A stretch of DNA of 32,000 nt. Origin: Candidatus Paracaedimonas acanthamoebae (GTDB lineage Bacteria; Pseudomonadota; Alphaproteobacteria; Caedimonadales; Caedimonadaceae). The stretch is from NCBI GenBank assembly GCA_000743035.1, contig CP008936.1:1020001-1052000 (forward strand), given 5' to 3'. The translations under genes were made by a program, and so were the position numbers. Below are positions 20,951-21,380 of this stretch, in pieces. Each line of letters starts with the position of its first letter. Within the stretch, counting starts at the first letter, position 1. The notes beneath the pieces are model-generated. The model was not told the origin of the DNA and did not search any database. It worked only from the letters and a program-made list of their open reading frames with translations.

Positions 20951-21057
20951 GACAGACCACCATTCCACTGTCATTCCCGGACTTGTCCCGAGGATCTCAG
21001 GCAACCAGAAGGTATGAATAGATGCTAGTAGGTCTTCATCATGCGTGAGAGGTATGA
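20951..21057 (+). repeat. Direct repeat copy A (~105 nt), containing hairpin module A (20970-21001)
   Basis: Aligns by hand with copy B. In the core, 50 of 64 positions are identical with one 2-nt indel (GTCATTCCCGGACTTGTCCCGAGGATCTCAGGCAACCAGAAGG...). The flanks are also similar. Confidence 0.7.
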
Positions 21058-21103
21058 TGTGGGAGAGAAACATCGATTGGTGGCAGGAGAAATCTTTTGG
21101 TCA

Positions 21104-21157
21104 CCTGAGATCTTAGGCACAGGGCCTAGGATGACAACGTTGGGGGCCTAGGATGAC
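21104..21157 (-). repeat. Inverted hairpin module C (21104-21135) plus a tandem partial duplicate of its 14-nt arm (GGGCCTAGGATGAC at 21122-21135 and 21144-21157)
   Basis: Reverse complement reads GTCATCCTAGGCCCTGTGCCTAAGATCTCAGG. It matches module B at 23 of 30 ungapped positions, with the same flanks. Confidence 0.7.
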
Positions 21158-21271
21158 GAAAACAAAGGACCTTGGAACTCAGAGGTGAGGACTGAGTGGG
21201 AATTAAAACAACATAAAGAAAGGAAAAAAAGAACTAATTGAAAATAAAAGGTTATTAAATGACAAGCTTCA

Positions 21272-21380
21272 GACGTATCACCCACACGGTCATCCTTGGG
21301 CTTGCCCCAAGGATCTCACAGGCAGCCAGGAGATGTAAATAGACGCCAGAAGGTTCTAAATGTGCGCAAGAGGCACAGGA
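21272..21380 (+). repeat. Direct repeat copy B (~105 nt), containing hairpin module B (21289-21322)
   Basis: GTCATCCTTGGGCTTGCCCCAAGGATCTCACAGG has a perfect 9-bp stem, ATCCTTGGG/CCCAAGGAT. The downstream GGCAGCCAGGAGATGTAAATAGACGCCAGAAGGT parallels copy A. Confidence 0.7.

Follow-up and report, generated by a model that had tools for sequence, protein, structure and literature searches.

The window analysed here is a stretch of 32,000 nucleotides (nt) from Candidatus Paracaedimonas acanthamoebae (contig CP008936.1, positions 1,020,001 to 1,052,000). One of its intergenic regions carries three short hairpin modules, designated A, B, and C, which are very probably copies of the alphaproteobacterial CGTC-tagged repetitive extragenic palindrome (REP), a kind of element that also includes the Neisseria NTS and the Ssn-related motifs (SRM). 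The partner protein of this family is the small GIY-YIG single-stranded DNA (ssDNA) nuclease Ssn, and not a REP-associated tyrosine transposase (RAYT). The finding amounts to local, in part decayed representatives of repeats that have been on record since 2013 and whose biochemical partner was described in 2025. It mainly closes the question on the three modules, and it extends the range of the family to the lineage in which they reside, the Caedibacter-like endosymbionts.

Three hairpin modules in one intergenic region

The modules had been proposed in a first-pass annotation of the sequence. A pattern with fixed spacing, GTCATYC-N15-RGATCTCA, located all three of them without a single mismatch, at 20970-20999 (+; A), 21106-21135 (-; C), and 21289-21318 (+; B); the three remaining listed matches in the window have three mismatches each. 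A variable-gap pattern matches A and B, and 0 matches are expected from shuffled sequences. Including the base in front of GTC, the modules are composed as follows.

20969 to 20999, plus strand: module A; tag TGTC, nine-position stem ATTCCCGGA/CCCGAGGAT, loop CTTGT, tail CTCA; a decayed copy.
21106 to 21136, minus strand: module C; tag TGTC, stem ATCCTAGGC/GCCTAAGAT with one C-A mismatch, loop CCTGT, tail CTCAGGTGACCAAAAGAT...
21288 to 21318, plus strand: module B; tag GGTC, perfect 9-bp stem ATCCTTGGG/CCCAAGGAT, loop CTTGC, tail CTCA; the best preserved copy.

All three have a nine-position stem that begins with A-T followed by T-A, a 5-nt loop, and a CTCA tail. Furthermore, all of them retain the GTC 5' of the palindrome and the C directly 3' of it. 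The host region is the intergenic interval 20376-21547 (1,172 nt), which is flanked on the left by a minus-strand gene for a glycine-zipper (Rick_17kDa-type) outer-membrane protein (OMP) and on the right by rimP-nusA-infB on the plus strand. Each module lies inside this interval and none in a coding sequence.

The modules differ in their state of preservation. As the first-pass annotation had stated, the stem of B is perfect over 9 bp and that of C pairs in eight of nine positions. As ssDNA, B folds with -8.7 kcal/mol (z = -3.2) and C with -3.8 kcal/mol (z = -1.8). The stem of A consists of six Watson-Crick pairs and one G-T pair among nine positions, so that 3/9 positions are not Watson-Crick. 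Compared to the consensus of its type (type 1, see below), A has three substitutions, and every one of them is located in the 5' arm. Since these substitutions are unpaired and confined to one arm, they indicate decay rather than compensation. Module B contains one true double change relative to the family consensus, from C-G to T-A. The stem of C belongs to a separate subfamily with the arms CCTAGGC/GCCTAGG, and much of the apparent compensatory change among A, B, and C is due to this difference between subfamilies.

A family of hairpins with covarying stems

For a search in other genomes, one genome per bacterial or archaeal species was scanned with GTCATYCNNGGN7CCNNRGATCTCA, which specifies the positions that are invariant in the three modules. 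This pattern matches at least 113 loci, compared to about 17 that are expected by chance according to our own estimate from the information content of the pattern and the size of the database. A gap of 18-26 between the conserved ends, close to the one suggested in the first-pass annotation, gives no match in the window, because the true gap is 15. Nearly all of the matches listed are from Alphaproteobacteria and stem from Rhizobiales, Rhodobacterales, Ferrovibrio, Stellaceae, Parvularculaceae, Holosporales, and two metagenome-assembled genomes (MAGs) named Caedibacter; a few are evident chance matches within genes. Also among the matches listed, many genomes have a second, inverted copy within 10-40 nt. 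In the two Caedibacter MAGs, matches occur in at least 10 separate 8-kb blocks and inverted pairs are common; the window contains three copies in 32 kb.

The consensus of 116 distinct copies is nnCGTCATCCTCGGGCTTGACCCGAGGATCTCA, which can be summarised as CGTCATCCTCGGGCTTGACCCGAGGATCTCA. The base 5' of GTC, which is not part of the search pattern, is a C in 67 of the 116 copies (58%) and a T in a further 32 (28%). The CTCA tail of the matched loci, by comparison, was fixed by the pattern. Over the 116 copies, 97.1% of the stem cells of the alignment are paired. In 67 of these cells both sides are changed, compared to 12.7 +/- 3.0 in shuffles, and none of 500 shuffles reached 67. When the 3' partners were slid by one to three columns, pairing dropped to 20-58%. 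Just three stem pairs are informative in this respect, because the selecting pattern fixed most of the stem; these three free pairs keep pairing by means of many different base pairs. The compensatory pattern of the hairpin is therefore real at the level of the family. With many further copies at hand and a covariation that is significant against shuffles, the proposal that the hairpin itself is conserved has been borne out. On the module strand, G-T mismatches are more frequent than A-C mismatches (15 versus 6), which weakly favours one functional strand.

Two types of longer repeat units

In the window and in the two Caedibacter MAGs, the hairpins are the heads of extended units, which exist in two forms. 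Type 1 (T1), represented by modules A and B, has the stem CCTCGGN/NCCGAGG and a tail of about 60-65 nt that is conserved in sequence, with the consensus CTCAGGCARCC..GATG..GCCAGAAGGTC..GTGAGAGGCACG; the whole unit comprises about 95 nt. Type 2 (T2), represented by module C, has the stem CCTAGGC/GCCTAGG and a tail of about 35 nt, which adds up to a unit of about 65 nt. In the window, the following units and composite features were delineated; L054 is a locus in a relative that is described in the next section.

20969 to 21059, plus strand: T1 unit with module A; aligns to 15 other T1 copies (Caedibacter MAG loci) and to the unit of module B.
21288 to 21383, plus strand: T1 unit with module B; 76% identity over 96 nt to the T1 unit at 4707-4799 of L054, and other T1 matches.
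21071 to 21136, minus strand: T2 unit with module C; aligns to 7 T2 copies.
21144 to 21157, minus strand: tandem duplicate with a period of 22; head half of module C, consisting of one stem arm and the GTC tag.
20969 to 21136, no strand assigned: convergent A/C pair, T1 followed by an inverted T2; the tags face outward and no gene lies between.

The longer direct repeats, the inverted repeat, and the arm duplicate that had been noticed around the modules were all recovered. The direct repeat common to A and B aligns over about 95 nt. A and C form an inverted repeat with arms of 43 nt (20969-21011 and 21094-21136) that are 74% complementary and 82 nt apart; folded as a whole in the form of ssDNA, the pair has a z of -1.39 and is not compelling as a long hairpin. 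The 14-mer GGGCCTAGGATGAC (plus strand) is identical at 21122-21135 and 21144-21157, and the sequence past the duplicate is homologous to the spacer that adjoins a T2 copy in locus L066. Head-to-head T2/T1 pairs with partly conserved spacers, which resemble the C/B arrangement of the window, were found at several loci. No conserved secondary structure was detected in the T1 and T2 tails, where RNAalifold recovered the hairpin alone.

An ssn-like gene between the repeats in relatives

Among the relatives found, the MAG "Caedibacter sp. 37-49" with its locus L054 is the closest. The amino-acid identity to the window is 96.9% for BipA, 96.1% for UvrA (258 residues present in the locus), and 84% for the OMP, which marks L054 as the orthologous region of a close relative. 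A repeat array larger than that of the window follows the membrane-protein gene on the right; it has five hairpins of the present type and several of the CGTC-1 type (GTCATTCCCGCGAAAGCGGGAATC). This array includes an open reading frame (ORF) at 4282-4566, which codes for a protein of 94 aa with a GIY-YIG domain (Pfam E = 1.2e-16). Tyrosines 6 and 17 and glutamate 64 of the protein are located at the positions that were mutated in SsnA from N. meningitidis. The ssn-like ORF is located between a T1 copy (+) at 4193 and an inverted T2 copy (-) at 4593-4622: the direct hairpin ends about 60 nt before the start codon, and the inverted hairpin begins about 30 nt past the stop codon. The T2 tail reaches the stop codon of the ssn-like gene both in L054 and in locus L102, and T1 precedes ssn in L054.

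Across the at least 113 loci, tblastn revealed seven homologues of this protein, which originate from Caedibacter MAGs, Roseovarius, Ferrovibrio, Marivibrio, an unclassified alphaproteobacterium, and one contig that was binned as Campylobacterales. In all seven cases an inverted copy of the hairpin follows 1-44 nt after the stop codon, and in most of them a direct copy lies shortly upstream of the start codon. The arrangement repeat-ssn-repeat at these seven loci reproduces, for the present subfamily, an architecture that has been published as NTS-ssnA-NTS, with examples from Wolbachia and Rhizorhabdus (Chenal et al. 2025, PMC11893778). The association of a GIY-YIG protein with REPs as such was already published in 2025 (PMC11893778).

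A comparison of L054 (3447-5450) with the intergenic region of the window (20376-21547) shows that both share the order uvrA-bipA-omp and that collinearity ends within the repeat array. No rimP is present within 4.5 kb in L054; in L081, which belongs to a more distant alphaproteobacterial MAG, bipA still adjoins rimP-nusA-infB. The two ends of the A/C pair in the window, whose tails almost touch, correspond to those on either side of the ssn-like gene in L054. An origin of the pair as an ssn remnant by simple deletion of the L054 cassette was considered and rejected: the T1 tail runs directly into the T2 tail, and A carries the long version of the tail. The two close relatives thus differ in that one has ssn between the repeats and the other the repeat ends alone, with the gene order breaking in the array, which makes the locus usable for studying the turnover of such repeats.

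With respect to nomenclature, "Caedibacter sp. 37-49" is filed under Gammaproteobacteria/Thiotrichales in the NCBI taxonomy (L054, L102, and other MKUV01/MKUU01 loci). Among the fetched loci, the proteins next most closely related to those of the window are alphaproteobacterial, as is the repeat family, and the Thiotrichales label probably follows the polyphyletic genus name.

Relation to known repeat families

CGTC-tagged REPs have been described by Di Nocera, De Gregorio & Rocco (2013, PMC3733652). They carry an unpaired CGTC tag, which is TGTC or CCTC in many copies, and stems of 8-9 bp that almost always begin with complementary A-T residues at positions 1-2; the loops have 4-5 nt and the short, unpaired tail mostly fits CCA (PMC3733652). 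Most of these repeats belong to Alphaproteobacteria, among them Rickettsia and Wolbachia, where they are dispersed in many copies per genome and chiefly as inverted dimers; the same authors found no dedicated transposase and no RAYT gene flanked by the repeats (PMC3733652). In the window, the tag is TGTC in A and C and GGTC in B, the stems and loops of all three modules agree with the description (that of A with 3/9 non-Watson-Crick positions), and the tail is CTCA in every copy, a variant of the usual CCA.

The closest correspondence is to the CGTC-3 and CGTC-4 REPs. In common are the CGTC/TGTC tag, the 9-bp stem that opens with A-T/T-A, the 5-nt loop CTTGA/CTTGT, the short tail, the intergenic location, the inverted pairs, and the alphaproteobacterial hosts. 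The CTCA tail and the GGTC tag of module B deviate. Moreover, the hairpins studied here are embedded in the longer T1 (about 95 nt) and T2 (about 65 nt) units, which are absent from the 2013 paper. Among the REP-encoded peptides tabulated there for CGTC-3 are VIPGLDPGIH and VIAGLDPAI (PMC3733652), and both are translations of the hairpin found here. The literal sequence of the module gave no match in a literature search.

The resemblance to REPs and Rickettsia palindromic elements (RPE) that the first-pass annotation had noted is thus well founded: tag, stem, loop, and tail fit the CGTC-tagged REP superfamily, in which RPE-6 and RPE-4 have been equated with the CGTC-1 and CGTC-4 repeats (PMC3733652). 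By this equation and the accompanying description only, RPE-4 and RPE-6 share with the present repeats the intracellular alphaproteobacterial hosts and a hairpin core inside a longer unit. In contrast to the copies of R. conorii, which are inserted within protein-coding genes (PMC3733652), the three window copies are intergenic; none is inserted in frame in a coding gene, as all lie in 20376-21547.

The repeats also resemble the NTS and SRM, which are oriented hairpins with a conserved GTC upstream and a C downstream of the palindrome. The dRS3/NTS (CGTCATTCCCGCGMAVGCGGGAATCYRG) and the SRM flank genes for the small, single-domain GIY-YIG protein Ssn (PMC11893778); the SsnA of N. meningitidis has 94 aa, and its positions Y6, Y17, and E64 were mutated (PMC11893778). 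The present subfamily shares the architecture repeat-ssn-repeat in 7/7 ssn loci and a 94-aa protein with Y6, Y17, and E64. It differs in the last base and in the type-2 stem, which do not match the published SRM expression, and the window contains no ssn. Furthermore, the NTS and SRM are known biochemically, whereas the present subfamily is known from sequence alone. As in the mosaic intergenic regions of Neisseria with their dRS3/NTS arrays, the hairpins are clustered and interleaved with other repeat blocks, which are here the T1/T2 tails, conserved spacers, and rep250, a multicopy module described below. These blocks are unrelated in sequence to the neisserial ones, and the hairpin of Neisseria is a CGTC-1 with an 8-bp stem and a 4-nt loop. 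Tagged palindromes, frequent inverted doublets, and a single-copy nuclease gene flanked by repeats are finally also features of the GTAG REPs and REPINs. However, the tag is TGTC/GGTC and the enzyme is a GIY-YIG protein instead of a HUH Y1 transposase, so that the modules are not members of that group.

A possible role of Ssn and points that weigh against it

The biochemistry of Ssn has been elucidated by Chenal et al. (PMC11893778). Ssn binds the hairpin solely as ssDNA and on one strand, cuts a few nucleotides upstream, and is inactive on double-stranded DNA and RNA; cleavage depends most on the three nucleotides 5' of the palindrome, and binding on the C 3' of it (PMC11893778). Other Neisseria species and Wolbachia possess homologues that each cut the cognate motif, and in N. 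meningitidis the system lowers the integration of transforming DNA that bears the repeat (PMC11893778). From the resemblance outlined above, we infer that the same mechanism may operate in the organism studied here. One strand of ssDNA would fold into the 9-bp hairpin; Ssn would bind it by recognising the unpaired GTC on the 5' side of the palindrome and the C on its 3' side, and would then nick the ssDNA a few nucleotides upstream. The window copies would be relics without a gene in a mosaic, repeat-rich intergenic region, of which B, and probably C, could still be bound, while A appears to have lost its stem. The cognate ssn may reside elsewhere in the genome or may have been lost; in the closest sequenced relative, its presumed counterpart is found at this very locus.

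Several results weigh against this interpretation. No ssn or other GIY-YIG gene was detected in the 32-kb window (tblastn for ssn). The ssDNA fold of module A (-3.1 kcal/mol, z = 0.04) is no better than that of shuffled sequences, which means that its stable hairpin is lost. The L054 protein was likened to Ssn by domain, length, and residue positions and not by direct sequence comparison. Neither the mobility of the repeats nor any role of Ssn in their spreading is established in the literature (PMC11893778). Finally, the published SRM search expression, HGTCWYN(0-2)YYVSBRHN(0-5)WNVSBRGN(0-2)RNCYNB, matches none of the 116 CTCA-tailed copies and none of the three window copies. It fails because its last position excludes an A and the subfamily ends with ATCTCA. 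If the last base is omitted, 73 of the 116 copies and module A match; B is then rejected owing to its GGTC tag and C owing to its stem composition. We recorded this as a failed test and treat it as a limit of a hand-built search string, not as evidence against kinship. As the expression misses the ATCTCA tail, SRM counts made with it miss a very common alphaproteobacterial subfamily.

As a separate observation, the window contains a gene for a ComEC/Rec2 competence channel at 28155-30314 (-). Because of this gene, the organism may import ssDNA, which is the substrate of Ssn in Neisseria.

The adjacent multicopy module rep250

A further repeat precedes module A in the same intergenic region.

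20685 to 20930, plus strand: rep250, about 245 nt, just upstream of module A; 57 nhmmer matches that represent 33 distinct copies.

The copies all originate either from the Caedibacter-like genomes mentioned above or from 49 metagenome contigs, which were retrieved with a pattern derived from rep250. The module contains a sigma-70-like promoter element, TTGAAT (20695-20700) and TAATTT (20718-20723) with a 17-nt spacer. Its TTGA and TAnnnT positions do not vary among the first 8 copies, and hardly among all 33, of which one has GTTGAT. About 200 nt follow, including a covarying hairpin at 20756-20783, for which 19 different stems were found; with their own partners, the arms form 7.5 consecutive pairs, compared to 5.6 with swapped partners. 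For the 33 copies, RNAalifold yielded a weak global consensus, and one local hairpin is supported by the partner-swap test. There is no match to rep250 in Rfam. The module may act as a structured RNA, or else as a portable promoter or leader.

CGTC-type hairpin repeats follow within 1.3 kb downstream of most rep250 copies. One could imagine a larger, undescribed modular element of this Caedibacter-like lineage that consists of rep250 as a promoter-bearing structured-RNA module, T1, an optional ssn, and an inverted T2, with the A/C pair as a non-autonomous form that is spread by Ssn-dependent nicking of ssDNA. We regard this as a tentative and rather doubtful idea. If it were true, it would offer a tractable case for how CGTC-REP/SRM repeats multiply, and a new multicopy RNA linked to them.

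Alternative explanations

The hairpins could instead act as RNA, namely as stabilisers, terminators, or regulators of rimP-nusA-infB or of a small RNA that starts in rep250. The promoter-like element at 20695-20723, which shows little or no variation among 33 copies, is oriented toward A; G-U-compatible mismatches are somewhat more common than A-C mismatches; and Di Nocera et al. have argued that many REPs are transcribed (PMC3733652). However, both orientations are represented among copies that lie within 350 nt of each other, no T-run is present 3' of any of the three hairpins, and the RNA folds of A (z = -0.71, no better than shuffles) and B (z = -1.93, modest) are not distinctive. Downstream of the three copies, rimP has its own promoter-like site and terminator-like hairpin (21447-21527). 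The tails lack conserved structure, and between 20300 and 21600 nothing in Rfam reached the gathering thresholds, the sub-threshold matches at E <= 5 being far below the gathering score. SsnA does not interact with RNA either (PMC11893778). A function at the RNA level is unlikely.

Even less probable are explanations that involve a transposase. The 43-nt imperfect inverted ends of the A/C pair (20969-21136) with their outward tags, and the related T1/T2 units at many loci, are reminiscent of a miniature inverted-repeat transposable element (MITE), i.e. of the ends of a transposon or insertion sequence moved by a DDE transposase. Yet a target-site duplication is not evident, no transposase is located in the window or beside the copies in the examined loci, the arrangements of T1 and T2 vary (convergent, divergent, single) as does their spacing, and the sole gene found between them is ssn; we consider a MITE very unlikely. 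Short tagged palindromes that often form inverted pairs would also be expected of a classical REP or REPIN mobilised by a RAYT, but the tag is CGTC/TGTC and not GTAG, Di Nocera et al. found no RAYT gene flanked by CGTC repeats (PMC3733652), and the gene flanked by the repeats at seven loci codes for a GIY-YIG protein. In agreement with the first-pass annotation, Pfam scans of the 25 window ORFs of at least 120 aa (excluding ORFs nested within longer annotated genes) revealed no RAYT/Y1 transposase and no other transposase. Mobilisation by a RAYT is therefore extremely improbable. A chance similarity or a local duplication without any family would be compatible with the fact that the window has just three copies, all within 350 nt. 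This explanation is already refuted and has next to no probability, as shuffles lead one to expect zero matches and at least 113 loci match in other genomes.

Further features of the window

The remaining genes of the window are ordinary core genes: mreB, miaA, pyruvate dehydrogenase, rplS-trmD-rimM-rpsP, ffh, priA, and tal, and furthermore xerC/D-like, uvrA, bipA, rbfA, comEC, and gltX. No metagenome locus near-identical to the window was found. The cumulative GC skew has its minimum at about 20000-21500 and the genes diverge from there, as at an origin. A replication origin in the intergenic region is nevertheless unsupported: this region contains no DnaA box with at most one mismatch, and the number of boxes in the whole window corresponds to chance.

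The gene priA (11108-13083, -) is represented by two overlapping ORFs, one of 472 aa with the 3'BD, helicase, and zinc-ribbon domains and one of 186 aa with PriA_C; either a frameshift, or a pseudogene, or a sequencing error accounts for the split. Directly 5' of ffh, the Rfam 'ffh' small RNA motif RF01793 was found at 10440-10491 (-) with 37.5 bits, compared to a gathering threshold of 35; it is the sole Rfam match in the window. At 21447-21527 (+), a promoter-like TTGTCA-17-TATATT (10/12) is followed by a hairpin and T-run that resemble an intrinsic terminator. The segment ends 4 nt short of the listed TTG start codon of rimP (21532) and 20 nt short of the first in-frame ATG, and it could serve as a leader attenuator of the rimP-nusA-infB operon.

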